From NCBI RefSeq assembly GCF_964204645.1, contig NC_134028.1, forward strand, positions 16,003,653 to 16,067,652: DNA of 64,000 nt, read 5' to 3'. Numbering within the stretch: position 1 is the stretch's first letter; every line of letters starts with the position of its first letter. Positions 5,701 through 25,654 of this stretch are shown one piece after another. The position numbers and the translations under genes were made by a program. Below the pieces are notes generated by a model. The model worked only from the letters and a program-made list of their open reading frames with translations, made no database searches and was not told the DNA's origin. Source of the DNA: Tubulanus polymorphus. Taxonomy: Eukaryota; Animalia; Nemertea.

Positions 5701-6593
5701 AGTCGTACATCGATAAATTTCTGAAAGTTAAGACGGAATCTAGTGGGTGGCCATCGGGCGATATGTCCGACGATGAAAGACTAAACTATATAGCGGAATA
5801 CGCGGCGCGGGAAGGTATCCAATTAGATGGGGATAAGATTGAAAAAATTCCGGGTCTGCGAACAGTCGCAAAATTATGTCTGAACAGTATGTGGGGGAAA
5901 TTTGGTCAGAATAGTAACAAAACTTCGGCGAAATACATTTCGGACCCGGGGGAATTTTACGAGTTGATTCTCGATTCGGCGGTTGAAATTTCGGACATAA
6001 TCATCTGTAACGATGATGTACTCCGTGTACATTACAAAACAAAGTCTGAGTTTGTCAAGCCAAACAGTCGAACAAACGTTGCCATAGCTGCTTTTACAAC
6101 TGCTCACGCTCGACTCATACTGTACACATACACGGAGAAGCTAGGGGATCGAACCCTTTATACGGACACTGATTCGATCATCTATTCCGTAAAGCCTGGT
6201 GAATGGGAACCAGACACTGGTAACTTCTTAGGCGACATGACAGACGAGCTCGGTCGTAATTGCTACATAACTGAATTTGTTTCGGGGGGACCTAAAAATT
6301 ACAGCTATAAAGTCCTTGATACGGAGACGAACCGTTATTCGTATGAATGCAAAGTCAAGGGGATAAATCTGAATTACAGAAATAGTCAAGTCGTCAATTT
6401 CAAATCTACGCTTAAATTAATCACCGGCGATACCCGTGAGAAGCTTTTAGTAAATAATCCGGGTACAATTAAACGAGATATAAGGAGGGGGGTAATTTAT
6501 AACAAGGATGAGACCAAAACCTACCGCGCCGTGTACACAAAAAGGGCATTTGATCCGGGTAATAGATATAACACATTACCGTTTGGTTACTAG
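2787..6593 (+). pseudogene. pPolB: Protein-primed family B DNA polymerase (pPolB) of a Maverick; one premature TAG at 3138-3140, then open from 3144 to 6593
   Basis: Exonuclease motifs AFDFETT, AHNFQSFDGYF, YCRSDVDIL; KGYFP; Vsr-like insert VDGYD...YEFHGCLFHGCPKC; polymerase motifs YIDICSLYP, KLCLNSMWGKF, YTDTDS, GPKNY, KVKG. ORFs 2748-3140 and 3144-6593 share a frame. Confidence 0.95.
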
Positions 6594-6979
6594 TTTCTGA
6601 TGTTGCGACAGTAAACTCAGTTTCATTGCCGCGATAAGCTGGAAAGTTACCTCCGTCTTGGCTCTTGGACAGTAAACTCAGTTTATTTGCGCACAGTGGT
6701 AGCTGGAAAGTTGCCTCGTAACATTGGTCTCAGAAGTACTAAACAAAACCAGATTGCGCGAAATGATTTTTTCATCTCTTGTTTGCTTGCTTCGATGATT
6801 TACTAACGGTCTTTCAATACGCATAGAACTGTCAGTCAGCTATCGGAGCGGGGGAAGGGAGATATACTTATAGTTAATTAGGCTTAATAATATTATATAG
6901 GCGACCGATAATATACCGTTTATTACGTTTCTAATGGCATCATACAATTTAGGGACATGAGTTCTATCTAGTCAATTTG

Positions 6980-7610
6980 TAGTTACTTATTTGTAAATAT
7001 TTTTGTTTGGCTCAATAAAGTACTGAAATATTAGTATTGCATTTTGATTTCCGATATTATTGTAATGTATCTAATTTGTAGTTATCTTTCAATGCAATAA
7101 AGAACTGAAATATTAGTATTGCATTTTTATTTCAGATATTACATTGATATTTATTTGTATCATTATCTGTTTTAGACACAATAAAGTACTGATATATTAG
7201 TATTGCATTTTTATTTCAGATATTATTGTAATGTATGTACTCTGTAATTATCTTATTTTGATGCAATAAAGAACTGAAATATTAGTATTATATTTTATAT
7301 ATTAATCTAATCCATTGAGTTTGTAATTATCTTTTTTATTGATGCAATAAAGAACTGAAATATTAGTATTATAATTTATATATTAATCTAATCCATTGAG
7401 TTTGTAATTATCTTTTTTTTGATGCAATAAAGAACTGAAATATTAGTATTATAATTTATATATTAATCTAATCCATTGAGTTTGTAATTATCTTTTTTTG
7501 ATGCAATAAAGAACTGAAATATTAGTATTATATTTTATATATTAATCTAATCCATTGAGTTTGTAATTATTTTTTTTTGATGCAATAAAGAACTGAGTTT
7601 GTAATTATCT
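6980..7610. repeat. AT-rich tandem repeat of ~80-bp units (about 8 copies), each with AATAAA
   Basis: gatgcaataaagaactgaaatattagtatt recurs at 7260, 7341, 7421 and 7500, with a truncated copy at 7578 and diverged units near 7013, 7095 and 7179. Confidence 0.9.
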
Positions 7611-7963
7611 TGTAAATATTCTCATAGCTTATTGTTTCCATGGAATAAAAAACATATCATTTTCATATTTCTACCAAGAAAATGTGTTGCTTCCGTTGTT
7701 ACTTTGCTATCTCCATGTGAATGTTGTTATGACTTTGTGTAAATATTCTCATAAGAACTTTTATGAAAAATAAAACGTGAACATATGATATTTCAACCAT
7801 GAAAATAATTTGTTGTTTTTTTTCTCGTTGCCACCTTCGATCCTTTTGAGCACTCCTCCCATGAGTAAAAGAAAATACGCTCGTTATCATTTAATAAAAA
7901 AGGACATTTTCGTTTATTCTTCAAAGTAATTACAATAATATGCGAATATGTAAAATAAGTAAC

Positions 7964-8764
7964 TCAGATATCAGAAGGATTGTTTACTTCGGGACATTCA
8001 CGTATCTTCTCGAAAACACTAATGTCTCTAGTAGCACAGAAACAGCAAAAGTCTTCCTGATTAAAGTGAGTGAATATACATGGTCTGGTAGTTTTGAGTT
8101 CTGGTATTATATCGCTTAAGTCAATATCTTTCAAATTATTCCACTGCGCAAGAGACAATTTAACACCTTTTTTGGTCGCTTCTCTGGTACCCTTGTCATC
8201 GACGAGACGATAATATCGTATATCAACGTACACGCGGTGGCTCTCTCGAGATTTGTAGACTTTAACGTAATTATCTCTCCCTAAACTGGATACGCTAGAG
8301 TCGTAGTCTCCAGCTTTAGCGCGATCGATTGCGTTGTCGATTTCCATTTTGCAAAAGTTTAAATGTACCCACTCTTGAATGTATAGAGATATTCCATTTT
8401 TGGTCGGATATGCCCATCTTTTTGCGCTACAATCGTAATGTCGAATGTCAATTCTTTTCGTATCGTTCCACGTAGTAGGACTGACATAAACTAGCATTCC
8501 TAGATAAAACTGCGTATCCGATTTGCTAGTGTTGTCATTCAGAAAATTCGGTGTTGCTGTATCTCCTGAAACGATAAGATTTAGGATAGATTACTAACCC
8601 GAATTGATATTGAGAATATAAGTTGAAAAAATCTGAGAGAGTTAAATACATACCTATATCAAGATTCTTTTTACTTTTCTTCTCCTTTGGTACTGATGTA
8701 TCCGTATTTTGTTGCTGATAACGTCGTTTTCGTTAGGTGACGATGAGATAACCGGAGAGTACAT
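7964..8764 (-). CDS. Tandem PC4/p15-like ssDNA-binding protein of element A; two exons (8764-8654, 8565-7964), with a probable 1-nt frameshift in exon 1
   Basis: Two PC4-type repeats (RIDIRHYD...PTKNGISL...EW and YVDIRYY...ATKKGVKLSLAQW). GT-AG intron at 8653-8566. Restoring one A gives MYSPVISSSPKRKRR. Confidence 0.75.
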
Positions 8765-8922
8765 GTTGCTCGTTGTGTGTCTCGTCTCTAAATGAAATGA
8801 CCTGTCTATTGTCGATGGATTGTAGGTGGCGATGTTGTTTCTATTGTTACAAAAATCTTGCCCAGACCCGTATCCGAAATAGCTTTTGCCCGAACTCGCC
8901 CGATGTATTTTTTAAATTTTCC

Positions 8923-9188
8923 CGCTATCTTGGATCCGCCATCTTGGATGACATTACTTCCTGCCACCATCTTGGATCCGCCATCTTGGATCCGCCATCT
9001 TGGATTACGTCACTTCCGGTCGCCATCTTGGATTACGTCACTTCCGGCCGCCATCTTGGATTACGTCACTTCCGGCCGCCATCTTGGATTACGTCACTTC
9101 CGGCCGCCATCTTGGATTACGTCACTTCCGGTCGCCATCTTGGATTACGTCACTTCCGGTCGCCATCTTGGATTACGTCACTTCCGGT
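8923..9188. repeat. Subterminal tandem array: 7 x 28 bp CGCCATCTTGGATTACGTCACTTCCGG(T/C), preceded by shorter 14-bp units
   Basis: Units start at 8993, 9021, 9049, 9077, 9105, 9133 and 9161. The array ends 49 bp from the element terminus. Confidence 0.95.
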
Positions 9189-9239
9189 TAACCACATCCA
9201 CAACCACACCCGCCTATACCGGGACAGTATAACTACTGA

Positions 9240-9628
9240 TCGGCAATTGTTAACGCTTCAGCATTTACTGGTGGTGGTTATTTATTTAAGCATATTGATA
9301 AAAATGGTTCATTAACAGAACAAAAAAGACATAACTTAGCATTAGAAAAATATAATAAAGCAGCAGAAGAATATAGAGAAAAAAGACAAAACTATACGGA
9401 TTATATTAACAAGGAATTATATGATCAGAAGATTTCACGTAGAGATTTTCAGTTGATGATGCAATGAGTTTATATATCGCGGTAACCAATAAAGAAAAAT
9501 TACATCTATACAAACCTAAATTATCAGATTATTATACCCCAAGTAAAGAACAACAGAAATATGAAATAATTTGGATTTTAGGTGGAACAGTTATTGTTAT
9601 ATTTGTTGCTTATAAGTTTACTAATTAG
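9240..9628 (+). pseudogene. Small coiled-coil plus C-terminal TM protein of element B; 5' end cut by element A, frameshift near 9450
   Basis: SAIVNASAFTGGGYLFKHIDK...EQKRHNLALEK, then a shifted frame DDAMSLY...PKLSDYYTPSKEQQKYEIIWILGGTVIVIFVAYKFTN*. Confidence 0.7.
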
Positions 9629-9648
9629 TAATTTTTTTTTCTAAATAA

Positions 9649-10083
9649 ATGGAAGATAAAGTTGATAATATTGATATTATTCCTCATGATATAAATAAAA
9701 CTAAATTAAAAATATATTTAGAAAAACAAATATTAGAATTTGAAAGTGACTTAAAGATAAAAAAGAAAAAATATTTAAAAAGTAAAATTATATATTATCT
9801 TATTATTAGTGGTTCGGTTACAATTAGTTCTGTAATAACATTTCTAGCAATATTCAGTCCATTAACACCTTTAGCTATATCAATTGGTGTGTTAGGATTA
9901 TCATCAAGTGTTTTAACTGGTATAAGTTCAAAATTAAATATAAAAAGTAATAAAGAAAAAATTAAAACTAATATAAAAGAAATTAATAAATTAAAGAATA
10001 CACTAGATTATATAATAAGTTTAAATGGCCATATAACAGTTGAAGAACAAGATAAATTATTAAAAGAATTAATAAATTATTAA
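9649..10083 (+). CDS. Hypothetical membrane protein (hydrophobic hairpin between coiled-coil-like segments)
   Basis: 144-aa ORF with a TAAATG start and a long hydrophobic segment IIYYLIISGSVTISSVITFLAIFSPLTPLAISIGVLGLSSSVLTGI. Confidence 0.75.
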   Translation: MEDKVDNIDIIPHDINKTKLKIYLEKQILEFESDLKIKKKKYLKSKIIYYLIISGSVTISSVITFLAIFSPLTPLAISIGVLGLSSSVLTGISSKLNIKSNKEKIKTNIKEINKLKNTLDYIISLNGHITVEEQDKLLKELINY

Positions 10084-10099
10084 TTTTTTAGTTATATAA

Positions 10100-11515
10100 A
10101 TGGCAGATAGTTTTCCAAAAGCTTTCCAATATAATAAATCAATTAAATATAATATTCCAGCAATAGATTTTAATAAAGATATTACATATAGAAATGAAGT
10201 TTTAAATTCATTAATTAATTTATATATTTATGTTACTGAAAGTAATAATTTTCATGTAAAGATGGAAAATATATTTCATGTGTATACAATTAATTTCAAA
10301 AATTTAAATGAGGCAAAACAATGGTTATTAAAATCTAATATGAAGTATGGGCAGAACCAATTAAATTTTGCTGTTTATTGCGCGACAACAGGATGTGGAA
10401 TTAGTTGGAATGATCATTTAAACAAACCAAGTTTACCATTGATGTTATCACTTTTTAGATTTCATACTTATTTTCAAATAAAATTAATATTAGATGAATT
10501 AGAATGTCCTTTACCAGGTTCAAAATATTTCAAAGAATTAGATAATAATATTAATTTATGAAAGTTTTATAAAATTTGTAATGAATTTAATATAGATATA
10601 AATAATTCTGATTTTAGAACAAAAATTGGAACAATAAGATCACTTCCTTGCCCTAAAAAGATTGCAGAATATTGCGCACTTCCCATACCATCTAATAGCT
10701 TTTATAATATTTATAATAATAAATTAGGTTATGGTAAAATAGAAACTAAGGATTTAGAAACATTAAATTTCAATAAATTACCGAAATTTTATGATAATTT
10801 AAAACAAGAAAACAATAATGGTTGGGTTCATTTTATTTTAGAAAATAGTGAATGTTTTACTAAATCAGGTATAGAAAGAATAAATCAATCTATTAGAACT
10901 TATTTGATATGTATTTTAGGCGCGCAAGTTGAAACAAGATCCCCAATGATTGGAAATTTGAATACATCATTTGATACACAGAAACAATTTAAAGTATTAT
11001 TTGAAGATTCAATTCATAACGATAAAAATAGATCGATTCCAGAAAACATTATAAGATATCAAAATTATTTAGATAAATCTCATGTAAGGCTTAATTATTG
11101 TATAGGCCCTAATCTATTAATTATTTCTAATGATTTAGTATTAAAGATGGGAAATATAATTGGTTATAATAATCTAATTAAAACTGCAACAATAAATAAT
11201 TCTTTTGGATTGAATGATATAAATAAAAAGATTATTACTGCTCCAAAATTAATGGAAGGTGAAAAAAATAAAAAACATATTCAATCAACAGAAACTAAAA
11301 CTAATAATATTAAATTAAATAATGATTCTAAAATAAAAGATTATAATACATCAGAAAATGGTGCCGTACGGCACCCACACGGTGATAATAGAACTGATAT
11401 TATTCAACATGATATAATTAAACTAAATGATGATAATAAATCCCATGAAAATACTAAATTAGCTATAACTTGTATAGGAATTGTAATCGGAGGAATATTA
11501 TATTTTAAATTTTAA
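10100..11515 (+). pseudogene. ~471-aa hypothetical protein with a C-terminal TM anchor; single TGA at 10559-10561
   Basis: ORFs 10100-10561 and 10904-11515 share a frame and the sequence between them is open. Ends LAITCIGIVIGGILYFKF. Confidence 0.8.
11357..11384 (+). repeat. 28-bp GC-rich palindromic micro-element, in frame within a coding sequence
   Basis: AATGGTGCCGTACGGCACCCACACGGTG, containing a perfect 16-bp palindrome at 11360-11375. A second copy lies in the integrase (17321-17348). Confidence 0.85.
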
Positions 11516-11532
11516 TTTTTTTTATTATGTAA

Positions 11533-12988
11533 ATGGATGTAGAAGGTGGAGAAGATTATGAAATGGAAAACATGAGAAATAATAATGATGCCAATACTAA
11601 CGATGATGATTATATGACTGCTGATACTAATATTGATAATGATAATGATATAACATATAATTCTAATTTAGCAGATAGTGGTTCTAAAGCCCCATCAACA
11701 GATGAATTTGATAGAAGAACTAGATCGAGAATACCTATTGAAAATGAAAATACAGGTTTATTAAAGGAAAATTTAGAATATAATGAGTATATTTATAATT
11801 TCAAACCTATATTTGAAAAATCTGGATATAATATAAATGCCAGAGGCGCCAGACTTTTAGTACAAGAATTAAAATCTTTAGATGGTGAATATTATTATCA
11901 TTTGAAAGATGATTATTATATTGATATCTCTTATAAAAAACAAAACAAAATATAAGCAGAATCAACTTTGCTTAAGTTAGACCTATCTAGAATTAAAAGA
12001 ATAAGAAATAGTAATGAAATAGAAGATGTAACACACGAAGAAATTATTAAAAATGAAAGAGTATTTAAACAAAGAATTAATGAATTATTTGAAACAATCG
12101 ATAATAATTTAGAAACAGAAACAACTTCTGAACAGAATATAACTTCCAAAACTAGTAAACTTAAATCAAATAAAGTTCCAATTGAAAAACTTTTATCGAA
12201 TGGATTACTTGATGCAACAGATCAAGAATTAGAAGATTTAGATATATTTTCTGATAAAGCAATTAGAGAGATTATTAGTATAAGAAATGCATCTGATAAA
12301 ATTGCGCATGATAAAAGTATGAGATTTTAAAATTAGAACTTTAGAAAAAGAATTAACTGATAAAAATAAAGAAATAGAACAATTAAAATTAGATAGAGAT
12401 AATAAAGTTATTGAAGAAATTGAATTTAAAAAAAGAAATGCATATTTAGAAAAAGAAATAGATGATTTAGAATATAACATAGAATTACAAAAAGAAGAAA
12501 TTAAATTATTATTAAAATCATATGATTATAATATTAATAGATTAAAAGTTATTTTTAAAGATTTGTTGATTAAACCAGATTCTAAAATATCATTGAAAGA
12601 TAGAATAAAGTTATTATTTAAATTAGAAGGAATAACAATTCTTTCAATTCTAACATCTGTAACTATGTTATTTACAACAATTGGTTTAGCTATATCAAAT
12701 GCTTTAAAATCTACTCCTACTCCCAATAAACCAGATAAACCACCGAGTAATAATTCTATACAAGATAAAGTTAAAGATGGTTTAAAGAAATTAGCAAAAT
12801 ATTTATGGGAACTATCTAAAAAATCTGCTGCAGCTTTATCAGGAATTATTGCATCAATTGTTGGTTTTATATTGAAATCTGCAGGAAACATTATTAACTT
12901 TGCTGCTGAACATATTATTTTATTTTTAATAACTGTTGTAAGTGCTATTATTTTTGGATTAGTAAACATGTTAACAAAAAATAAATAA
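11533..12988 (+). pseudogene. ~485-aa protein: acidic N-terminus, long coiled coil, hydrophobic C-terminus; TAA at 11953-11955 and a frameshift near 12323
   Basis: 11533-11955 and 11968-12330 share a frame. A shifted open frame then runs into ORF 12563-12988, which ends in TM-like helices. Confidence 0.75.
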
Positions 12989-13007
12989 TTAATTTTTTGT
13001 TAAATAA

Positions 13008-14247
13008 ATGAGTGGGAGTTATATCAATCCTTCGAAGAATATCTAATGCTATTAAAGCAGAAAGATCACATCATATAATTACTCATAACCCTTCAAATAT
13101 TAATCCCGATGAAACTTTATATGTTAGAATCCCTCGATTAACACAAAATACTTTTTATGTTCCAAATAGTATTTATTTATCGGCCGATATAAAAGTAATC
13201 GGTAATAATAATAATTATGTTGTTGATAATGTTGGAAGATATTTGATTAAAAAGTTAACAATAAAGATTGGTCCAGAAACAGTTTTCTCATTAGATAATT
13301 ATAATTTATTTATGCATTATAAAGATTTATGGTTAACTAAAGAAAATAGAAATAATATGATATTTCAAGGCATCCAATCAGAAAACCAAAATAAATTAAG
13401 ATCAGAAGCTAATAGCGCAATATTAACTAATGCTGTAGATAAATTGATAAAAAGTATATATGGAAGCAAATATAAAATTCCATTAGACTTTGAATTGATA
13501 AATAATAATGCACCTTTATATAAATACGCAATTCAAGAAGACGTTATATTCGAAATAACATTTGCTCCTGTAAATGAAATTGTATTATCTAGCGTTGTTC
13601 AAGATATGAGTTATAAATTATCGAATATATGTTTAGAATATGACACAGTAACTGATGAAAATATTTCAAGTATAATTCAAACTAAATACAATCAAGGATT
13701 TTCATTATTATATGATTATATTGATAAATTTAAAACCGTAACTATTAATGCAAATGATGAAATAATTAATGAGAATATTAACTTCCCAAGAAGATCTATT
13801 AAAGGTATATTAATATTTTTTACCATTGCAACATATACTAATGGCGCAATAAATGTTGATAATTATTACAATCCTGAAATAAAAAAAGTAGAAATAACTA
13901 TCGAAGGAATAGCAAATAAAATATTTTGTCAAGGAATGAGAATGATTGATCAATGGCCAGAAATTAGAAAACATTTTATGAATGAAAAAGTGAAATCATC
14001 TGAAAATTGTAATATTAATCAAATTGATTATTATACCGGTAATAAATACACATTATGGTTAGATTTTAGAACAACAGAGGATAATTCATTACATGGTTCT
14101 GGAAAAAAACTACAAAACACTAAAGATGGAATACAATTATTCATGACAAAGAATAAAGGAATCAAAAATTTTAAAATGCATATTTATATTATATCTGACG
14201 CGCAATTAAATATTGTAAATTCACAATTAGATAGTGTTATGTATTAA
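13008..14247 (+). CDS. Putative major capsid protein (double jelly-roll candidate) of element B; likely frameshift just after the ATG at 13008
   Basis: ~411 aa with beta-strand-like patterns (YLSADIKVIG, YLIKKLTIKIG, VIFEITFAP, KVEITIEG) near the ATPase and integrase. The TAAATG at 13005-13010 is out of frame with the long ORF. The fold assignment is inference. Confidence 0.6.
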
Positions 14248-14279
14248 AATTTTAACTTTAATAAAAATATATATAATAA

Positions 14280-15356
14280 ATGGAAGGAGGTAAAGTATAT
14301 GAAAGAATCAAAGCTGATAAAGAAATCAATGATGATTTGTTTTATGTAATACCTTATAAAAGAATAAATGAATATATTGGAACATTTTTATTAAATGAAT
14401 TAAATCAATACAAAGAATATTTAATTGAACGTAATAATAATATTGATATAAAAATAGAAGATAATATTGAAACAAAAATAGAAGATAATATTGAAACAAA
14501 AATAGATAATAATATTGAAACAAAAATAGAAGATAATGTTATACCTTCTACATCGAATGATGATAAGATTGAAACAAAAATAGAACATAATATTGAACCT
14601 AAAATAGAAAAATCAAATGTTCAACCAAAAGATAACATCAGATGTATGTATTGTGAAGAAGATTTTGATAATTATAATGATTATTTATTACACATCAAAA
14701 AAGATGAACATATTTTACAATTAGTAAAAAAATATGCCAATATATATAAAGATAAATGCAAAGAGGATCAGAATTATTGTGCCTTCTGTAATGAATGTAT
14801 AACAAAGGCTAATTGGGCAAAACATTATAAATTAAAAACAAAAGGTGGAAATGATTCAGCCCATGCAATACAGGTATTTAAATCTTGGTGTGAAAAATGT
14901 AAAGAATATGTAATATATGATAAACAATTGAATCATAAATACTCGATTAAACATATTGGTACAGATAATGTAATAGAAAATCCAACAGTTATAAATCCAA
15001 AATTTAATAATATGAATATATTAGATTATCGGTGGTATAGAAAAACATTTATAGATTATTTCTTGAGTAATGATATAGTTACCATATTGAAAAAGTTAGA
15101 TAACTTTAAACCAAATGTAACTTATGCAATGAACTTATTTGAACTTAAATATGATGATTTTAGAGAATTTTTAAATAAACATCCATCTAAAACTGAAATC
15201 GAAAATTATATTCCAAAAATATTTTCAAGAGAAACATTCAATAAATATAAACTCGGGAATCGTTCAGGAATTATACCAATGAAAATGCGAAGGAATATAT
15301 GGTTAGAATATGATAAGCTTAAAGAAAAATATGAAAATGAAAATGAAAAAGATTAA
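14280..15356 (+). CDS. Zinc-finger protein (C2H2/U1-like fingers) with IETKIEDN repeats
   Basis: CMYCEEDF...HIKKDEH, CAFCNEC...KH, CEKCKEY...HKYSIKH; 24-bp tandem repeats at about 14440-14540. Confidence 0.75.
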   Translation: MEGGKVYERIKADKEINDDLFYVIPYKRINEYIGTFLLNELNQYKEYLIERNNNIDIKIEDNIETKIEDNIETKIDNNIETKIEDNVIPSTSNDDKIETKIEHNIEPKIEKSNVQPKDNIRCMYCEEDFDNYNDYLLHIKKDEHILQLVKKYANIYKDKCKEDQNYCAFCNECITKANWAKHYKLKTKGGNDSAHAIQVFKSWCEKCKEYVIYDKQLNHKYSIKHIGTDNVIENPTVINPKFNNMNILDYRWYRKTFIDYFLSNDIVTILKKLDNFKPNVTYAMNLFELKYDDFREFLNKHPSKTEIENYIPKIFSRETFNKYKLGNRSGIIPMKMRRNIWLEYDKLKEKYENENEKD

Positions 15357-15374
15357 GTTCCATTTATATATTGA

Positions 15375-15687
15375 TTGATGAATGGATGAGTTGGATGAGT
15401 GGAAGAGTGGATGAGTGTAATAATATATTTATTTGTATATGTATATTTTTAACACATGAATTGGAAGAATAGTATGAGTATAAATATAATATTTGTATTC
15501 TTTATTAAATTTAACACAATATATATATTATTAAAATAATATTTAAATGTAGTATAAAATTGATAAAATAACTTCAAATCAAACTCTTACTGTTTTAAAA
15601 ATAAGAAACATATGTAAATTATATATTATTACACTCATCCATTCATCCACTCATCCAATTCATCCAATTCATCCACTCATCCATCAA
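15375..15687. repeat. Inverted pair of GGATGA(G/A)T iteron-like arrays flanking an AT-rich core, between convergent genes
   Basis: 15375-15428 (ttgatgaatggatgagttggatgagtgg...gtgtaataatatat) is mirrored by 15621-15687. Confidence 0.85.
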
Positions 15688-15724
15688 ACATATTCAAAAT
15701 TCTATAATATTGTAAATTAGGATT

Positions 15725-16336
15725 TTATTTTATAAATTTATATTCATATGGAAATTGTAGTCTTAGTAATAATTTTGAACCTTTATTATTCTTTAATTTA
15801 TTCATATATTCATCATGTAATTCAGTAGGTATAATTTGATTTTCTTCCAATGATTGTTGCATAGATTTTTTATCTTTGTTATAAAATAAAACTAGAAATC
15901 TTATATTCTCCCTAAAGTCTTTAACAATTGAATTATATTTTTGATTTAAAACCCATGTTGTTATCCCAAAATGTCTCCCGGAGAAAGCTAGATAACATAA
16001 CTCACTTTCTCTCACTTTTGAATCATGTAAATTTGCGCAATCATCTATAATGAATAATGTATTTGATCCTTTATAAGTATCAATTGCTATTTTTATACAA
16101 TTATCTAAATTTTCTTTTACTGTTTTAGGATCTAATATAATAAACTTTTTTATCTGAACTATATCTCTATTATATGTTTTATTCATTTCATAAGTAGGAC
16201 AGAATAATATTATATTATCAAAATGATTCTTATAAATAGTTTCTAACAAATCTAATATGAAATGTGTTTTACCACAATTGGTTACTCCAGTAACTAACAT
16301 ATTATGCGGTTCAAATATAAATAAATCTTTATTCAT
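15725..16336 (-). CDS. A32/FtsK-HerA-family genome packaging ATPase
   Basis: Walker A GVTNCGKT, Walker B LFIIDD, and GRH...Q motif (SGRHFGITTWVLNQ). Confidence 0.88.
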   Translation of the reverse strand: MNKDLFIFEPHNMLVTGVTNCGKTHFILDLLETIYKNHFDNIILFCPTYEMNKTYNRDIVQIKKFIILDPKTVKENLDNCIKIAIDTYKGSNTLFIIDDCANLHDSKVRESELCYLAFSGRHFGITTWVLNQKYNSIVKDFRENIRFLVLFYNKDKKSMQQSLEENQIIPTELHDEYMNKLKNNKGSKLLLRLQFPYEYKFIK

Positions 16337-17459
16337 TTATTCTTTTAATTTTACTAGATAAAATCCATTCATTAAATTTATCATCGTATCCTTTATATTT
16401 CACCAAAGAATACTTTTTTCCTTTAAGAGATTTTGTTTTCAATACTTTTTCTATTTTGTATTCTATTTCATCTGGATTTGGTACAAGTGATAATTCTTGT
16501 TCATAGAAATAACCTAATATTTCTTCATCTTTTAGATCTTCTAATTTATAAACAAAAGGTTTAGTTAATATTATCTTTTTAATTTTGAATATTTCTTCAG
16601 TAAAATTTGGAGTATAACCTTTATAAAATGTTTTTCTATATTTAGATATTCTAACGTGTTGTCTAATTTTGAATCTAGGTTCACCGAAATCATGTGTAAC
16701 AAAGGCTCCATATAAATTATTCCAAACTATTTCCGAATTATCTTCTTTTCTAGCTTGTATAGGTTTCATATTCATAGAACTATGTTTAGAATTATTATAA
16801 CCTTTCACTAAATCATCTAATATATTTATAGACTCATCGATATATTTATATGTTTCATTAGCAGTAAAGTATTTCCACATTCTAGTTTTCAATGTTTTAT
16901 TAAATCTTTCTATAATAGATGCTTTTTTATCTGAGTGTGTTGAAAAATAGTCTACATCGTTATCAGATAATAGTTTTTTAAAATGTTTGTTATAAAATTC
17001 CTTACCTTCATCAAATTGTATCTTATCTGGAATAGCTTCTTTAAATATAGATTTAAAAGCATTTGTCACTTCCATACCAGTTTTATTTTTGATTGGAATT
17101 GACCATGCGTATCTACTGAATATGTCTATAACATTCAGTATCCAGAAATATCCTTTGTTGTATTCCTCTAAGTTCTTCATGTCAATTAAATCTGCTTGCC
17201 ATTGTTGATCGATATATGAAACCATAACTTTTCTTGTTAAATAAGTTTTATCCATTTTCTTGTGGATTTGATATGTTGGTTGATTTTGTAACCATGATTT
17301 TAATTCACTATATTTTATACCACCCTGTGGGTGCCGTACGGCACCATTAACATTTTAATTTTCAGATTTAATTTTATTCCATAATTCTGTAACGTTAGAA
17401 TATGATACTTCACTCTCTGGGTTATAATATAAATCTCTTAAATATTGTTCTTTTTTCAT
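16329..17459 (-). pseudogene. INT: Polinton-type retroviral-like integrase (rve plus C-terminal chromodomain); N-terminal TAA at 17355-17357, open from 17255 to 16329
   Basis: DDE motifs WQADLID, IQFDEGKEF, IERFNKTLK; chromodomain YKIEKVLK...LVKYKGYDDKFNEWI; in-frame upstream MKKEQYLRDLYYNP...WLQNQPTYQIHK. Confidence 0.92.
17321..17348 (-). repeat. Second copy of the 28-bp palindromic micro-element, in frame in the integrase N-terminus
   Basis: Reverse complement reads AATGGTGCCGTACGGCACCCACAGGGTG, 27/28 identical to 11357-11384. Confidence 0.85.
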
Positions 17460-17465
17460 TCTATT

Positions 17466-17861
17466 TTAATCCATTAATAATAATTTAGATTTAGTTTCAA
17501 TGGCTTTATGATTTGACTTATTTTCTGGTATGATAGGTTTACTGTCTGTACATGGATAACTAAGTTTCCGATCATTGGAATCATCTTTATCATCAGATTT
17601 GAACTTTGATTTATATATTACACCGGATAATATAATAACTGTTACTAATCCAATTGTAATATATAATTTATAATTACTTCCAGCATTAGAAGAATCAGAT
17701 GGATTATTATTTGAATCAATATCAGATAAAGTCTGTGATTCATTTATATCAGTTAATTTCTTTTTCTTAGCTTTTTTTAATTCTGAAGATCTTTTACCTA
17801 ATTCTCTTGCCCATTTAATTTGTTTCTCGGATCTAGCCTTTTTCTTAACTCCATCACTCAT
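17466..17861 (-). CDS. Small basic protein with a single TM helix
   Basis: Lys/Arg-rich N-terminus; LYITIGLVTVIILSGVIY; TAAATG start overlapping the end of the upstream gene. Confidence 0.7.
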   Translation of the reverse strand: MSDGVKKKARSEKQIKWARELGKRSSELKKAKKKKLTDINESQTLSDIDSNNNPSDSSNAGSNYKLYITIGLVTVIILSGVIYKSKFKSDDKDDSNDRKLSYPCTDSKPIIPENKSNHKAIETKSKLLLMD

Positions 17862-18456
17862 TTATTTTAGTTAATTTTTGTTCTGATTCATTTTCTGTTT
17901 CGACGTTTGGTTGTAGTACATCTGTTTCGTTCTTACCTGATTTATATTCCATAGGTTTGATGTTCGAAAATGTTATGACACCAGTAGAAATTAATGTCAT
18001 AACCGATCCTAATTGAAATGAAGCATATCCAACCCATTTTTGTAATTCAGTCATAACTAAGTAGTCATTTTTCAAATCACTATATAATTTATTTTCATCA
18101 TCAATTGGTATTAACTGGTTACATAACTTAGAATAACATTTGACAATACCATCTGAAATAGAATCATTTATTCTAGCTAATCTTGCTTCTTCATAAATCT
18201 TAAAATATTTTATTACTTTATCTGGTTTCATAGCATCTAATTCTTGAAAAGTAATAGTCTTAGTTAAAAACTCCTTAGTTTTTCCACCGGCAATCAATAG
18301 TTCTAGATGATGCTTACAATACAAATAGTATTCATAATCTATATTGTTATTAACTTGAATAGAATTAGAAACAACTGGATCCTTATTATCACTTATACCC
18401 AAATCATCTAATGTCTTTTCAATATCAATACTATTCTTACTCGATTTCTTTGACAT
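17854..18456 (-). CDS. Hypothetical alpha-helical protein of element B
   Basis: 200-aa ORF in a tightly packed gene array, with a hydrophobic stretch near the C-terminus. Confidence 0.7.
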   Translation of the reverse strand: MSKKSSKNSIDIEKTLDDLGISDNKDPVVSNSIQVNNNIDYEYYLYCKHHLELLIAGGKTKEFLTKTITFQELDAMKPDKVIKYFKIYEEARLARINDSISDGIVKCYSKLCNQLIPIDDENKLYSDLKNDYLVMTELQKWVGYASFQLGSVMTLISTGVITFSNIKPMEYKSGKNETDVLQPNVETENESEQKLTKINE

Positions 18457-18702
18457 TTTTATTAGAGAAATTTAATAAGAAAAATATTATAAGTATTATA
18501 AAATGATACTAGTATCTCTTTAGATTAATACTAGCTTAGTTAAAGGTAAAGAATTTTAGTATTAGTTATTGTTTTTTTAGTATTTTTTATTTGTGATATA
18601 AAGTATTCTTTTTTGAAAAGAAAATATTAAAAATATAATAGAAATAATAGATAGTTGAAGGTATGTAATTTTTATTATATTTTATTTAAAATCTATTATT
18701 CT

Positions 18703-19368
18703 TTAACCACTCATTAAAGACTCAACGTATTGTTCATTATTTGGATCATTGTTCCATTGATCAATAAATTTCTTTGCATTTGTTAACTGTTCTAAATATA
18801 ACTGTAAATCTAGTTTATTAGATTTAATTATGTTTTCCTTCTTTTCTAAAGGTCTTAAATTCTTCCAATTCCAAATAAGTTTTTTATTGTATTCATCATT
18901 CATGTTAAATTTAGAAATCGGCAACACGTGATCAATATGGTAATAATCCCCATAATTATCTATATTCATTTTATCATCGAATTGAAATATAATCCATGAT
19001 TTGAGAAATTCATCTGTACAACCCAACAAATTAGATAATGTTTCTGAATGTGTTTCTTTGTTGAATAATTGTGTTAATCTAGATCTTAAGCATTGTTTTA
19101 ATCTAAAATTAAGATCTGTTTGATATCTTCCTGTCATATGTTCTACCATATAATAATTATAATGTTCTATATTATCTTCTCGATATTGTTTGGTATATAG
19201 TTTAAAACAAGTTTTACAGCAATATTGAAAACCATCTTTGCTAATCTTACGCTTACTAAATTCTGTTAATGATTTATCTAATTCACATTTAGAACACTTC
19301 TTGTAGTATATGTTTATAACGCCAGTGTTATTTGTAAAATTGATAATTTGTGGTTGTTCTGGTTCCAT
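18703..19368 (-). CDS. HNH/endonuclease VII-like protein with an N-terminal CxxC...CxxC zinc ribbon (large DNA virus type)
   Basis: KKCSKC...CCKTC; NYGDYYHIDHVLPISKF...WKNLRPLEKKENIIKSNK. Confidence 0.8.
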   Translation of the reverse strand: MEPEQPQIINFTNNTGVINIYYKKCSKCELDKSLTEFSKRKISKDGFQYCCKTCFKLYTKQYREDNIEHYNYYMVEHMTGRYQTDLNFRLKQCLRSRLTQLFNKETHSETLSNLLGCTDEFLKSWIIFQFDDKMNIDNYGDYYHIDHVLPISKFNMNDEYNKKLIWNWKNLRPLEKKENIIKSNKLDLQLYLEQLTNAKKFIDQWNNDPNNEQYVESLMSG

Positions 19369-19509
19369 TTATTATACGTATTTTTTTTACTAAATTGGTT
19401 AATAATTTTAGAATCCTCTTCCATTTCTTCGACCAACGTCATCCTTTTTCATTCCTCGCTGCTTTTGATAAGTTGTTTCGATTCCTTGATATCTAAATCA
19501 TACCAGTTA

Positions 19510-19850
19510 CAATACCCGCGTCACATGCGGACATACAGGCGCGCTTTTGCTTAATGCGCATGCGTTAATCATAATTATATATTCATTCTATAAATTCTGT
19601 AAAATAGAAACAACACATGCGTTACATGCGTCACATGCGGCCATTTATGGCCGGTTTTGCTTAATGCACATGTGTTAATCATAATTATATATTCATTCTA
19701 TAAATTCTGTAAAATAGAAACAACTGAACATAGAAAATTCAAACGCATTCATGTCCCTCGTCACATGCGTTACATGCGTCACATGCGGGTTTTGCTTAAT
19801 GCGCATGCGTTAATCATAATAGAAACGACTGAACATAAAAATTCACAAAT
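19510..19850. repeat. Cluster of direct repeats with CACATGCG and TGCGCATGCG motifs
   Basis: A ~63-bp unit occurs at about 19551 and 19662; cacatgcgttacatgcgtcacatgcgg occurs at about 19614 and 19762. Confidence 0.8.
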
Positions 19851-20499
19851 CAGATTTACACAATACATTATACAAGTTGTTCAGTCATTTCTTCCAATAC
19901 ATCATTTGATTTCTATAAATACAATTTATAATTACAAACATTTTTTCAATTGTTGGTAAATATTTAACTACATCAACAAATGTTAAACTTAATCATTGGA
20001 GTCTTAATGTTTTTGAAATTCTTATATTTCTTCGTCGATCTTTTGGTGATTCTATTGGTTTGATATCCATTGTTGTTGATTCCTCAGTCAGAAAGAGTAT
20101 CTTGAGTTTCTCTATCACTTCTTGATTCGTATGGCGTTTTATTAATCTAAAAGATATTAGCGATAACTCTAGCTATCTAAAAGACATACTAAATACACTT
20201 AAATATATCTAAAGGTTTCATATTTAATAGCCTTAATAACTACAACAAACAGTACTTACATTTAGATTTATAATTGTAAACTATAAACTCCTAATTTCGT
20301 TTCGAAAGATAGAATATCCTGAGCACAATATTACAGCGTACATTCATTTCTTGCCACGTCATCTGGCTCCGGTTCTAGAGTGTTCTCTCTCTGCACGTTT
20401 GTAATAATGAGTCATAAGTCTCGGCGTCATAGTAACAGCTGTAACAGCTGTGAATTTATAGATTTATTCCATAGCTCTGTACATTGAATGTATATAGGC

Positions 20500-20751
20500 T
20501 CAAATAGAATCATTTTCTAGTATAAACATCAGATCCTTGATATCAAATTCCTCAACGTATTGTTTATTATTTGGATCATTATTCCATAATTCAATAAATT
20601 TCTTTCCTTTTGTTAACTGTTCTGAATATAACAGTAAATATTCTAGTTTCAATTTATTCTCATAATGTGTTTTAGTTTTATTGTGTCTTGCTTTTTGGGA
20701 TTTATCTATATTGATATTACATGTTGGACAGTAGTACTTATTTGCTTCCAT
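20500..20751 (-). CDS. Small U1-like zinc-finger protein whose C-terminus is paralogous to the HNH ORF tail
   Basis: YYCPTCNI...HNKTKTH; EQLTKGKKFIELWNNDPNNKQYVE. Confidence 0.6.
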   Translation of the reverse strand: MEANKYYCPTCNINIDKSQKARHNKTKTHYENKLKLEYLLLYSEQLTKGKKFIELWNNDPNNKQYVEEFDIKDLMFILENDSI

Positions 20752-20833
20752 TTTAATACTAAATTTTTTATTAAAATTGATTTTAGAAGTTCAATGATTT
20801 ATATGTTATTAATTTATATGAATATTTTAAGAT

Positions 20834-21097
20834 TAATAGGGGTTTAGTTGTTTCAGGTTAAAGGTTGAAAGGGCGAGTGAGTAAAAAATGAAAAATATGA
20901 AAATAATAATAATTTCTACTTGAATTAGGAGTGAAACTCATAAAAATGAAAAATAAATTCGAGCGTGTGAGAATTTATTTTTCATTTTTATGAGTTTCGC
21001 GAGTAATTCAAGTAGAAATTGTTATTATTTTGATGTTTTTCATTTTTTACGAGCTCGACCTTTCGACCTTTGATCTGAAACAACTAAACCCCTATTA
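20834..21097. mobile_element. 264-bp imperfect whole-length palindrome (MITE-like fold-back element)
   Basis: taataggggtttagttgtttcag...ctgaaacaactaaacccctatta, with a central loop near 20965 and TA flanking the GGGG/CCCC ends. Confidence 0.8.
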
Positions 21098-21102
21098 CTA
21101 TC

Positions 21103-22100: not shown

Positions 22101-22368
22101 TAATGACGATAACATACTCGCGAAACTCATAAAAATGAAAAATAAATTCTCACACGCTCGAATTTATTTTTCATTTTTATGAGTTTCACTCCTAATTCAA
22201 GTAGAAATTATTATTATTTTCATATTTTTCATTTTTTACTCACTCGCCCTTTCAACCTTTAACCTGAAACAACTAAACCCCTATTAATCTTAAAATATTC
22301 ATATAAATTAATAACATATAAATCATTGAACTTCTAAAATCAATTTTAATAAAAAATTTAGTATTAAA

Positions 22369-22620
22369 ATGGAAGCAAATAAGTACTACTGTCCAACATG
22401 TAATATCAATATAGATAAATCCCAAAAAGCAAGACACAATAAAACTAAAACACATTATGAGAATAAATTGAAACTAGAATATTTACTGTTATATTCAGAA
22501 CAGTTAACAAAAGGAAAGAAATTTATTGAATTATGGAATAATGATCCAAATAATAAACAATACGTTGAGGAATTTGATATCAAGGATCTGATGTTTATAC
22601 TAGAAAATGATTCTATTTGA
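22369..22620 (+). CDS. Small zinc-finger protein (mirror of 20500-20751)
   Basis: Identical translation. Confidence 0.6.
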   Translation: MEANKYYCPTCNINIDKSQKARHNKTKTHYENKLKLEYLLLYSEQLTKGKKFIELWNNDPNNKQYVEEFDIKDLMFILENDSI

Positions 22621-23751
22621 GCCTATATACATTCAATGTACAGAGCTATGGAATAAATCTATAAATTCACAGCTGTTACAGCTGTTACTATGACGCCGAG
22701 ACTTATGACTCATTATTACAAACGTGCAGAGAGAGAACACTCTAGAACCGGAGCCAGATGACGTGGCAAGAAATGAATGTACGCTGTAATATTGTGCTCA
22801 GGATATTCTATCTTTCGAAACGAAATTAGGAGTTTATAGTTTACAATTATAAATCTAAATGTAAGTACTGTTTGTTGTAGTTATTAAGGCTATTAAATAT
22901 GAAACCTTTAGATATATTTAAGTGTATTTAGTATGTCTTTTAGATAGCTAGAGTTATCGCTAATATCTTTTAGATTAATAAAACGCCATACGAATCAAGA
23001 AGTGATAGAGAAACTCAAGATACTCTTTCTGACTGAGGAATCAACAACAATGGATATCAAACCAATAGAATCACCAAAAGATCGACGAAGAAATATAAGA
23101 ATTTCAAAAACATTAAGACTCCAATGATTAAGTTTAACATTTGTTGATGTAGTTAAATATTTACCAACAATTGAAAAAATGTTTGTAATTATAAATTGTA
23201 TTTATAGAAATCAAATGATGTATTGGAAGAAATGACTGAACAACTTGTATAATGTATTGTGTAAATCTGATTTGTGAATTTTTATGTTCAGTCGTTTCTA
23301 TTATGATTAACGCATGCGCATTAAGCAAAACCCGCATGTGACGCATGTAACGCATGTGACGAGGGACATGAATGCGTTTGAATTTTCTATGTTCAGTTGT
23401 TTCTATTTTACAGAATTTATAGAATGAATATATAATTATGATTAACACATGTGCATTAAGCAAAACCGGCCATAAATGGCCGCATGTGACGCATGTAACG
23501 CATGTGTTGTTTCTATTTTACAGAATTTATAGAATGAATATATAATTATGATTAACGCATGCGCATTAAGCAAAAGCGCGCCTGTATGTCCGCATGTGAC
23601 GCGGGTATTGTAACTGGTATGATTTAGATATCAAGGAATCGAAACAACTTATCAAAAGCAGCGAGGAATGAAAAAGGATGACGTTGGTCGAAGAAATGGA
23701 AGAGGATTCTAAAATTATTAACCAATTTAGTAAAAAAAATACGTATAATAA

Positions 23752-24417
23752 ATGGAACCAGAACAACCACAAATTATCAATTTTACAAATAACACTGGCG
23801 TTATAAACATATACTACAAGAAGTGTTCTAAATGTGAATTAGATAAATCATTAACAGAATTTAGTAAGCGTAAGATTAGCAAAGATGGTTTTCAATATTG
23901 CTGTAAAACTTGTTTTAAACTATATACCAAACAATATCGAGAAGATAATATAGAACATTATAATTATTATATGGTAGAACATATGACAGGAAGATATCAA
24001 ACAGATCTTAATTTTAGATTAAAACAATGCTTAAGATCTAGATTAACACAATTATTCAACAAAGAAACACATTCAGAAACATTATCTAATTTGTTGGGTT
24101 GTACAGATGAATTTCTCAAATCATGGATTATATTTCAATTCGATGATAAAATGAATATAGATAATTATGGGGATTATTACCATATTGATCACGTGTTGCC
24201 GATTTCTAAATTTAACATGAATGATGAATACAATAAAAAACTTATTTGGAATTGGAAGAATTTAAGACCTTTAGAAAAGAAGGAAAACATAATTAAATCT
24301 AATAAACTAGATTTACAGTTATATTTAGAACAGTTAACAAATGCAAAGAAATTTATTGATCAATGGAACAATGATCCAAATAATGAACAATACGTTGAGT
24401 CTTTAATGAGTGGTTAA
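23752..24417 (+). CDS. HNH/endonuclease VII-like protein (mirror copy)
   Basis: Identical translation to 18703-19368. Confidence 0.8.
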   Translation: MEPEQPQIINFTNNTGVINIYYKKCSKCELDKSLTEFSKRKISKDGFQYCCKTCFKLYTKQYREDNIEHYNYYMVEHMTGRYQTDLNFRLKQCLRSRLTQLFNKETHSETLSNLLGCTDEFLKSWIIFQFDDKMNIDNYGDYYHIDHVLPISKFNMNDEYNKKLIWNWKNLRPLEKKENIIKSNKLDLQLYLEQLTNAKKFIDQWNNDPNNEQYVESLMSG

Positions 24418-24663
24418 AGAATAATAGATTTTAAATAAAATATAATAAAAATTACATACCTTCAACTATCTATTATTTCTATTATATTTTTAATATTTTC
24501 TTTTCAAAAAAGAATACTTTATATCACAAATAAAAAATACTAAAAAAACAATAACTAATACTAAAATTCTTTACCTTTAACTAAGCTAGTATTAATCTAA
24601 AGAGATACTAGTATCATTTTATAATACTTATAATATTTTTCTTATTAAATTTCTCTAATAAAA

Positions 24664-25266: not shown

Positions 25267-25654
25267 TGGAGTTAAGAAAAAGGCTAGATCCGAGAAACAA
25301 ATTAAATGGGCAAGAGAATTAGGTAAAAGATCTTCAGAATTAAAAAAAGCTAAGAAAAAGAAATTAACTGATATAAATGAATCACAGACTTTATCTGATA
25401 TTGATTCAAATAATAATCCATCTGATTCTTCTAATGCTGGAAGTAATTATAAATTATATATTACAATTGGATTAGTAACAGTTATTATATTATCCGGTGT
25501 AATATATAAATCAAAGTTCAAATCTGATGATAAAGATGATTCCAATGATCGGAAACTTAGTTATCCATGTACAGACAGTAAACCTATCATACCAGAAAAT
25601 AAGTCAAATCATAAAGCCATTGAAACTAAATCTAAATTATTATTAATGGATTAA
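25259..25654 (+). CDS. Small basic TM protein (mirror of 17466-17861)
   Basis: Identical translation. Confidence 0.7.
   Translation: MSDGVKKKARSEKQIKWARELGKRSSELKKAKKKKLTDINESQTLSDIDSNNNPSDSSNAGSNYKLYITIGLVTVIILSGVIYKSKFKSDDKDDSNDRKLSYPCTDSKPIIPENKSNHKAIETKSKLLLMD

Follow-up and report, generated by a model that had tools for sequence, protein, structure and literature searches.

Gene content and extent of element B

The window analysed here, a 64,000-nt stretch of the Tubulanus polymorphus genome, contains a Polinton-like provirus, element B (9238..21099), which encodes a double-jelly-roll capsid protein, an A32 ATPase and an rve integrase and is devoid of introns. It abuts element A (1827..9237), part of an ordinary Maverick of 40% GC that bears zinc-finger/pPolB and PC4 genes and, beside the B junction, a 28-bp repeat array. 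The B copy lacks its left end and has decayed, at least five of its genes being interrupted by premature stops or frame breaks. The GC content of about 20-25%, estimated by eye in the first-pass annotation, was computed to be 24.2% (9238-20833), and the tight packing of intronless genes described there was borne out, as gaps between same-strand genes range from -8 to 32 nt in the two main blocks and the B proteins are colinear with unbroken relatives, no intron-sized gaps being found. The end of B, previously placed at 20833, in fact lies near 21099, past a terminal imperfect palindrome with a stem of about 135 bp (20831..21102; DNA fold -106.8 kcal/mol, z -22.9). A check for terminal inverted repeats and target-site duplications showed that only this right end remains and that the left end is lost. 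At the edges, 701 X6 reads continue past 9238 into unlike sequence and 506 continue past 21099 with an agreement of 0.36. Read depth over B reached 100 to 200 times that of the low-copy flank in one run, and the B family is present in host DNA in many copies with varied flanks. An inverted copy of 5736-21005 occupies positions 22115..37384. Over its 15,270 nt it carries 8 substitutions in the interior and 1 at the edge; it may be a recent duplication or a fold-back artefact and, being an inverted repeat, it was not counted as independent evidence.

The plus-strand block opens with the remnant of a small membrane-protein gene of a conserved 139-aa family (9240..9622), whose 5' end is cut at the element A junction and whose frame is broken near 9450; tblastn aligned it in two frames to the 139-aa ORF of the related locus L003 with 72-79% identity. 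It is followed by genes encoding a 144-aa two-helix membrane protein (9649..10083; 78% identical to L003, with a weak SLATT_fungal match, E 0.004), a protein of a conserved ~440-aa family (10100..11515; 70% identical to L003, premature stop at 10559) for which library, PDB and Atlas searches gave no match, and a coiled-coil and membrane-helix protein of a ~485-aa family (11533..12988; premature stop at 11953, frame break near 12323). The major capsid protein gene (13008..14247) has a frame break within its first ~15 codons. Its product is 74-75% identical to those of L001 and L003, and the AlphaFold model (pLDDT 86) matched capsids of large DNA viruses and virophages in Foldseek (TM 0.5-0.65, <18% identity, E down to 6e-20). 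The gene at 14280..15356 encodes a variable 358-aa protein with Cys/His clusters, 26-29% identical to L001 and L005, and its 3' part is rare among the copies (X6 depth of ~50 over 14510-15143 against ~800 on the capsid gene). A long imperfect hairpin (15357..15724; z -13.8 against dinucleotide shuffles) separates the two convergent gene blocks. Hairpins of different sequence occupy the corresponding position in L001, L002 and L005 (z -8 to -10), and we regard this structure as a candidate 3'-end signal.

The minus-strand block contains the A32-type packaging ATPase gene (15725..16336; Pfam Pox_A32, E 3.9e-12), whose TAAATG lies within the last codons of the integrase gene (16329..17459; Pfam rve, E 1.3e-9). 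The integrase carries a C-terminal chromodomain (Chromo, E 1.7e-4) and an in-frame premature stop at codon 35. Together with the capsid and ATPase genes, it upholds the earlier description of B as an integrating Polinton-like virus. Further along are genes for a 131-aa basic protein with one membrane helix (17466..17861), whose TAAATG again lies within the last codons of the upstream gene, a conserved 200-aa protein from a family of 50 ORFs (17854..18456) and a 221-aa HNH/endonuclease-VII-like nuclease (18703..19368; PHROG 1035, E 2.4e-18). Upstream of the nuclease gene lies a 110-bp tandem repeat (19518..19787) with GC-richer motifs that we take to be possible host-factor sites, a caveat for any reading based on helper promoters. 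An 83-aa zinc-finger ORF follows (20500..20751; minus strand), the 3' part of which duplicates the nuclease C-terminus (84%).

Neither a penton gene nor a protein-primed DNA polymerase B gene was found in the left-truncated B copy. In L003, a 254-aa protein (model pLDDT 63) has the mavirus penton as its best match (E 4e-8). In L007, one of 15 clade loci, a C-terminal fragment is 39% identical to a family in which polymerase motifs A-C were recognized by eye; Pfam, PHROG and PDB gave no confirming match for it. No match to an adenain-like cysteine protease was obtained with 15 B protein pieces or 30 chosen proteins from relatives, whose contigs are partial.

A two-part signal at start codons

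The first-pass annotation had noted TAAATG at most start codons of B, and the count held exactly, with 8 of 11 starts carrying it (9649, 10100, 11533, 13008 and 14280 on the plus strand; 16336, 17861 and 19368 on the minus strand). The two near-forms it listed are also present, at 18456 (TAAAAATG) and 20751 (TAAAATG), and at the eleventh start, that of the integrase (17459), TAAAA stands six bases farther upstream. Across both strands of 9238-20833, 28 of 473 ATGs are preceded by TAA, or 20 of 465 once the eight starts are removed, so that the starts are enriched over the background even when counted conservatively as 8/12 (Fisher p = 2e-8). We further observed a T at position -12 from the A of the ATG in 8/8 TAAATG starts and in 10/11 B starts (including 18456), against 8/20 other TAAATG sites of B. 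This fixed upstream T is absent from the earlier description, and the signal is stronger than was reported there. The complete two-part, promoter-like arrangement is exemplified at 9631..9651 (plus strand), where an A/T-rich stretch at -18 to -15 and a T at -13/-12 precede ATAAATG; it recurs at 10082-10102, 11515-11535, 12990-13010 and 14262-14282 on the plus strand and at 16334-16354, 17859-17879 and 19366-19386 on the minus strand.

Relatives were collected and the clade of B was delimited as 15 capsid rows in a quick tree (SH-aLRT 99), the contigs being all partial and amounting to 61.6 kb. TAA directly precedes the ATG in 44/53 homologous clade ORFs compared to 141/2272 of all ATGs, and in 44/51 ORFs when near-identical loci were dropped. 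The T at -12 is found in 59/64 true starts against 40/114 other TAAATG sites (p 1e-14), and 75% of the true starts have an A at -18. Of the 10 exceptions, at least four retain a TAAAT shortly before the ATG, as would be expected of an initiator more than of a translation context.

The low GC content and crowded genes of B might suggest that the enrichment simply follows from AT richness or stop-start packing, an explanation to which we give almost no likelihood. AT-rich sister loci or elements start with TAAATG in 0/9 cases while clade-type loci with GC >= 35% do so in 11/14, the TAA serves as the stop of the upstream gene in only 1/56 cases, and 80 viral contigs chosen for one motif match gave 45/595, with 15/247 in the subset of GC <= 30%. 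These controls, together with the fixed T, refute base composition or stop-start coupling as the source of the signal. Among distant relatives only 4/300 starts are TAAATG; within the window, none was found among the four candidate starts of element A or the four of the retrotransposon region, and TAA precedes the ATG at 1/12 non-B ORF starts. These results support a start signal shared throughout the clade whatever the base composition, and absent from element A and the distant relatives. Element A has distinct motifs, as had been noticed previously: its 28-bp tandem array carries GCCATCTT, TTACGTCA and CACTTCCGG, which are not found in B and which we take to be YY1, CRE and ETS sites, respectively.

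Resemblance to poxvirus late promoters

Published descriptions of vaccinia late promoters place TAAAT(G) over the start codon with a conserved T ten nucleotides upstream (PMC11980589), and the RNA starts at the first A of TAAA (PMC12917281). In B, the T lies 10 nucleotides before the first A of TAAA and 9 before its T, so that, with a T count ambiguous by one base, the predicted B signal matches the vaccinia late promoter as published to within one base. The likeness extends to the vaccinia intermediate/late promoter, where the T about 10 upstream stands among other T's and an A/T-rich element lies 15-19 upstream (PMC11980589, PMC5294985, PMC12917281, PMC12722222). The poxvirus-like architecture proposed earlier, TAAATG over the start codon, thus holds with a fixed upstream T for both B and its clade. 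By contrast with vaccinia, the predicted promoter of B sits in a small integrating virus in which no RNA polymerase gene was seen. The motif is no proof of a poxvirus, because the yeast cytoplasmic element pGKL uses a TAAAAT initiator and makes poly(A) leaders (PMC12722222) and promoters of the ranavirus polymerase contain TAAAT (PMC5294985).

The T-tracts that follow several stop codons had also been linked to the TTTTTNT early terminator, and this part of the proposal found no support. TTTTTNT occurs within 60 nt after the stop in only 2/12 genes, both times inside the next promoter, and in none of the two convergent gene ends; the tracts are the promoter core of the next gene. In the clade, sense T5 runs number 50 where 80 are expected, and A7 runs are similarly scarce (23 against 51), so TTTTTNT is not specifically avoided in coding DNA.

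As nearly all its genes start with a poxvirus late-type signal, B probably parasitises a poxvirus-like virus: judging from its sequence, it is likely a mavirus-like satellite whose genes a cytoplasmic helper of poxvirus type, not yet seen in the host, would transcribe with its own RNA polymerase. Integrated copies would be silent. Upon infection by the helper, its intermediate/late factors would read the A/T core, and its polymerase would start in TAAA, yielding transcripts with no templated 5' UTR and with a poly(A) leader made by slippage. B would then copy itself by its own protein-primed polymerase, a candidate for which is seen only in the relative L007, and, in the manner of mavirus with CroV, pack the DNA in a capsid of its own. 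No helper-like or B-like contig was found among 80 motif-matching viral contigs from 21/64 parts of a viral collection. A literature search returned nothing relevant on poxviruses in nemerteans, the poxvirus hosts named in the sources retrieved being chordates and arthropods.

Transcription of B by host RNA polymerase II, as an autonomous nuclear Polinton whose motif would be a compact core promoter or a translation context, appears unlikely. It accords with the high copy number of integrated B, the chromodomain of the integrase, the possible host-factor repeat at 19518-19787 and the lack of a helper in the parts of the collection scanned. However, the motif overlaps the start codon, leaving no space for a leader between such closely spaced genes, its T is held at a fixed distance, and the eight starts of element A and the retrotransposon region lack it. 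Moreover, a T at -3 does not resemble animal Kozak contexts.

We consider it rather improbable that the promoters are relics of a poxvirus-type satellite lineage now maintained solely as a transposon in the host, its helper gone. The broken genes of this copy, the heavy amplification of the family and the unsuccessful scan for a helper would agree with such a history, yet the motif has persisted among capsids that share only 52-75% identity and in loci ranging from 20 to 44% GC, and the ORFs of relatives are unbroken, which argues for continuing selection at least at the level of the clade. Still less probable is a self-transcribing cytoplasmic element like pGKL, with its own poxvirus-related RNA polymerase encoded in the missing left part. 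The initiator and poly(A) leaders of pGKL are compatible with it, and none of the clade members seen was complete; against it, B has an integrase and a capsid, and the longest contigs of close relatives among the matches listed measure 10-17 kb. Furthermore, the clade contigs of all 15 loci, including the 11.5-kb L003, contain no ORF >485 aa and hence no large RNA polymerase subunit.

Relation to known Polinton-like viruses and virophages

The word virophage, used for B in the first-pass annotation, may suit it in the sense of a predicted lifestyle but not in capsid class: in Foldseek, mavirus and Sputnik rank 38-45 with 9-12% identity, below iridovirus and chlorovirus. The B capsid gave no match to the Maverick capsid profile PF21738 at E 0.05, only Capsid_N matching weakly (E 0.016), and it has relatives at 34-38% identity, one of them labelled Mactra antiquata. 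On these grounds B is probably to be placed with the animal Polinton-like elements that fall outside Maverick groups 1 and 2; this placement is inferred, the capsid tree having been built without reference capsids. Such elements include Polinton-3_NV and N1A_NV (PMC11296320), octocoral, hydrozoan and bivalve elements near Aquintoviricetes (bioRxiv 10.64898/2026.06.19.733378) and coral elements (PMC11131425). The word 'promoter' is absent from the main text of these three sources, and, unlike B, its distant relatives lack TAAATG.

Sputnik and mavirus share the late promoters of their helpers (PMC6723459). Mavirus and the EMALEs of Cafeteria resemble B as integrated, AT-rich small dsDNA viruses with an rve integrase, an A32 ATPase, a capsid and a late promoter of helper type ahead of nearly all genes, the motifs differing between lineages, and may resemble its relatives in having their own pPolB (candidate in L007) and penton (candidate in L003) (PMC6723459, PMC8547959). 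B differs from them in residing in an animal rather than a protist, in using TAAATG instead of the CroV TCTA and in a capsid only 9% identical to that of mavirus. Poxvirus-associated Polinton-like viruses are already known in insects: AHEV_PLV1/2, CBEV_PLV1 and Ca_PLV1, associated with entomopoxviruses, are capsid-encoding elements of ~12 kb like B, described as proposed poxvirus parasites in animals, and one is integrated in a beetle chromosome (PMC11296320). In them either a tyrosine recombinase or no integrase was detected, along with a cysteine protease, whereas B has an rve integrase and no protease was found; their capsids, compared by eye, look unlike that of B, and their link to poxviruses rests on co-occurrence in occlusion bodies (PMC11296320). 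Neither 'promoter' nor 'TAAAT' occurs in the main text of that source, and our literature searches found no report of promoters shared between poxviruses and insect Polinton-like viruses. Gezel-14T (PgVV) is a Polinton-like virus that relies on a giant virus for its transcription and has its promoter in common with that virus, but it uses a mimivirus-type early motif on few genes and has an algal host (bioRxiv 10.1101/2022.07.28.501842).

Animal Polintons may be autonomous viruses, transposons or helper-dependent satellites, a question of long standing. Mavirus and Sputnik were linked to their helpers by evidence of the kind that a clade-wide helper-type promoter provides. The satellite reading of B predicts RNA starts in TAAA, poly(A) leaders and activity only in poxvirus-infected cells, and also a poxvirus-like virus in a host group for which our search found none reported. 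The copy number of the B family shows germline spread, for which a helper may not be needed. More tentatively, B could be a germline-stored provirophage of a true marine-worm poxvirus, woken by late transcription factors as an inducible antiviral defence, a possibility that we hold with some doubt. If so, sister lineages with a TATA-type initiator by the ATG would serve other helpers, and the type of promoter would serve to chart large DNA viruses still hidden in marine invertebrates. If infection wakes the integrated copies, the virophage defence of protists would extend to animals.

Start signal of element B and its relatives

The first-pass annotation had placed eight starts of element B, the Polinton-like provirus at window 9238 to about 21099, in exact TAAATG, and all eight were verified. 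The starts at 18456 and 20751 read TAAAAATG and TAAAATG, respectively. TAA precedes only 20 of the 465 remaining ATGs of 9238-20833, and the comparison of B starts with this background gave a clear enrichment (Fisher p = 2e-8, using a conservative 8/12 for the B starts). The signal is larger than first described and includes an upstream T: at position -12, counted from the A of ATG, T was found in all eight TAAATG starts, in 10/11 of all B starts and in 8/20 of the other TAAATG sites within B. The signals of starts 16336 and 17861 fall within the final codons of the preceding gene.

The B capsid had 174 matches in a word-indexed search and, in a full scan at E <= 0.001, matched 2,775 clusters; the analysis covered the 80 best of 288 metagenome loci, together with 3 loci from the genome collection. 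In a quick tree of 49 capsids, taking in only alignments of at least 250 residues, B fell in a 15-row clade with a support of 99, called here the close group. ORFs of at least 90 aa with a homologue in another locus were scored at their first ATG. Among these best-matching loci, TAA directly preceded the first ATG in 44/53 ORFs of the close group, 0/33 ORFs of the sisters and 4/300 ORFs of the distant relatives. When near-identical loci were removed, TAA was retained in 44/51 close-group ORFs, 41 of which also carried T at -12. The full signal was present on four additional ORFs of 75-80 aa and was spread over at least 10 gene families, in kin loci that are not independent. A separate pair, L021 and L025, whose capsid lineage is 33-35% identical and lies outside the 15-row clade, carries TAAATG in 4/4 homologous ORFs, reflecting either an independent gain or a loss in the sisters.

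An effect of base composition is extremely improbable as the source of TAAATG: clade-type loci at 35-44% GC have a TAA start in 11/14 ORFs, whereas sister loci at 29-31% GC have none (0/9), and 80 control viral contigs, picked for holding one motif match that was left out of the count, have it in 45/595 other ORFs (15/247 at GC <= 30%). TAA doubles as the stop of the preceding gene in 1/56 cases. T at -12 occurs in 59/64 true starts versus 40/114 other TAAATG sites (p 1e-14), and among the true starts position -18 is A in 75% and position -4 is A in 88%. Of the 10 exceptions, at least 4 retain TAAAT a few bases before the ATG, and about 3 appear to be ATGs inside ORFs that are broken or split. 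Elsewhere in the window, TAA precedes 1/12 non-B ORF starts, that of an unannotated ORF. A promoter-pattern scan of 21/64 parts of the viral collection listed 120 stretches, and none of the 80 viral contigs analysed with flanks was B-like or helper-like. The start-signal feature is real, and the case for a helper drawn from it is well founded but indirect.

Likeness to poxvirus promoters and source of transcription

Vaccinia late promoters are described as TAAAT, in most cases with a G next to it that completes the start codon, and with a conserved T ten nt upstream among other Ts, and intermediate promoters as having an AT-rich stretch 15-19 nt upstream (accessible parts of PMC11980589 and PMC5294985). 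TAAA spans -1 to +3 and is recognised by the viral polymerase itself, according to the available text of PMC12917281. The T of B precedes +1 by ten bases and the T of TAAAT by nine, and its match to the vaccinia T is exact or one off, according to how positions are counted. The two-part signal, TAAATG with T at -12, would be a promoter for a poxvirus-type polymerase provided by a helper. TAAAT is also reported within ranavirus polymerase promoters (PMC5294985, in part), so the helper of B could also be a virus other than a strict poxvirus.

It is rather likely that B is a helper-transcribed satellite of the mavirus pattern that uses a poxvirus-type polymerase. On that pattern, it would have its own DNA polymerase and integrase, would carry the late promoter of its helper on nearly all genes and would stay latent until the helper infects; the use of a helper late promoter and latency until helper infection are reported for mavirus (PMC6723459 and PMC8547959, as far as accessible). 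In line with this pattern, one clade locus holds a fragment that resembles polymerase B, identified from motifs alone, and a close relative of B encodes a penton-like fold. The gene set of B, the lack of introns, the clade-wide two-part signal and the many copies are established, and from them the helper polymerase proposed by the first-pass annotation is inferred. Its TTTTTNT part fails: this early terminator follows 2/12 genes, each time as part of the next promoter, and is absent at both convergent ends. Transcription of B by the host Pol II is unlikely. Avoidance of TTTTTNT was rejected as a specific feature: T-runs on the sense strand of the clade are depleted, yet long A-runs are depleted too.

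In B and in the capsid-relative loci L001, L002 and L005, the convergent blocks are separated by a strong hairpin whose sequence is not conserved. Hairpins of unrelated sequences (z -5 to -14) stand 3' of the ATPase gene at window 15357-15724, L001 3688-3852, L005 3121-3277 and L003 9085-9409, and the gap of L021 has none. These hairpins are reminiscent of the hairpin polyadenylation signal of mimivirus and Sputnik (PMC6723459, in part).

A polymerase encoded by the element itself, as in the yeast pGKL elements with their TAAAAT initiator (PMC12722222, in part), is very improbable: the partial clade contigs, 61.6 kb in total, contain no ORF of the size needed for the large subunit of an RNA polymerase.

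In the sisters (L015-L018, L028, L031), TATA occurs at most 20 nt from the ATG in 11/14 cases versus 11% in the background, and TAAATG is absent; in distant loci the figure is 81/233 versus 5%. This TATA often has an A-rich stretch 13-19 nt further upstream. It lies too close to the ATG for the TATA box of a Pol II promoter and may represent a further initiator of helper type. TATATA is reported for ASFV late promoters (PMC5294985, in part).

As to gene traffic with a helper, neither the B nuclease (14 matches) nor the deoxynucleoside kinase of L003 (4 matches, E <= 1e-20) had a named homologue among its matches. The kinase gene of this close relative (L003 10340-10981) starts in TAAATG. The sister element L016 has a weak Pox_VLTF3-like match at 6543-7052 (E 6e-4), and coral polintoviruses are reported to encode homologues of VLTF3 (PMC11131425, in part).

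Integrity and copy number of element B

B encodes a double-jelly-roll capsid protein, an A32 ATPase, an rve integrase bearing a chromodomain, an HNH-type nuclease and several conserved proteins without names. Its description as AT-rich, tightly packed and intronless holds: GC is 24%, same-strand gaps in the two main blocks range from -8 to 32 nt, and the genes are intronless because they align colinearly with unbroken relatives. B is cut within a gene at 9238, where it abuts element A (1827..9237), part of an ordinary Maverick that carries genes for pPolB and PC4. Near 21099 it ends in an imperfect hairpin of about 135 bp, flanked on the right by a MULE transposase remnant (21100-22114). This copy is decayed: premature stop codons interrupt its genes at 10559, at 11953 and at codon 35 of the integrase, and the reading frame is broken near 9450, near 12323 and at the capsid start. 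That the promoters of the lineage are relics is quite unlikely.

The terminal hairpin was considered as a poxvirus-type telomere and this candidate was dropped, a resolution-site-like pattern being absent from 20501-21120 and a comparable terminal hairpin from the 9 loci examined. Rfam gave no match within 5700-22200. A perfect 16-bp GC-rich palindrome occurs identically at 11360-11375 and 17330-17345, in two unrelated B genes, with 0 chance matches in 100 shuffles and no occurrence in any of the 203 loci searched; reads from other B copies skip 17319-17358, around the second palindrome.

The segment 5736-21005 recurs as an inverted repeat at 22115-37384 with 8 internal substitutions, either a recent duplication or an amplification or assembly artefact, and this mirror copy was left out of the evidence counts. 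Two nested near-perfect fold-backs span window 1-4493 and 5736-37384 (spacers of about 0.8 and 1.1 kb), and no contig among those listed bridges 37384.

In the raw-read run X6, of which 12% was used, depth was 419-899 over B, 9-59 over element A and 3-5 over the low-copy flank; 506 reads continue beyond 21099 into sequence agreeing only 36%, and 701 depart from the reference at 9238. These depths and diverging reads show that B forms a family with many copies inserted at many sites, and that the junction with A belongs to this copy alone. Measured against a host repeat, B had a ratio of 1.1 in X1 and 0.11 in X6, about 10 times richer in X1. The X1 richness is no evidence of active replication in sample S1: X3 and X4, which come from a single sample, also differ 11-fold (0.07, 0.006), so library bias could explain it. 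A host repeat of very high copy lies at 38260-40179 (about 8,500-fold depth in X6 versus about 4.5 in the low-copy flank), next to a BEL/Pao-like Gag-protease remnant (37385-38110; weak match, DUF1758, E 0.002); a DIRS-like retrotransposon with 122-bp inverted ends occupies 53335-59431. BEL/Pao elements are not known outside animals, so the remnant agrees with an animal host.

Element B among known systems

Searches of IMG/VR with the capsid, the ATPase and the 442-aa family (gene at 10100..11515) of B found no relatives, and INPHARED gave none either; Atlas gave capsid matches to unnamed viral clusters only and none for the 442-aa protein. Family members in records labelled bacterial (L081; P0045, P0132-P0139, from an Anaerolineae MAG and several Bartonella sp.) are probably eukaryotic contamination.

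By profile and fold, the B capsid is neither of Maverick nor of virophage type, so the virophage suggested at first would hold as a lifestyle only. B can probably be grouped with animal elements that fall in neither of the Maverick groups 1 and 2 (bioRxiv 10.64898/2026.06.19.733378, bioRxiv 10.64898/2026.10.13.758929 and PMC11131425). Polinton-like viruses co-purified with entomopoxviruses have been proposed as poxvirus hyperparasites (PMC11296320); their integrase type differs from that of B, and promoters go unmentioned in the main text of that source. The searched literature, mostly open-access papers and the main texts of bioRxiv preprints, and including PMC8956199, 10.1101/2024.03.23.586382 and 10.1101/2022.07.28.501842, yielded no account of a Polinton-like virus with late promoters of poxvirus type.

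Integrating satellites transcribed by a helper are already known; B would be a further one, notable for the animal germline and the poxvirus-type promoter. It is a tentative and somewhat doubtful possibility that B is a provirophage, which would be stored in the germline, would be woken by the late factors of a poxvirus infecting marine worms and may play an antiviral role.
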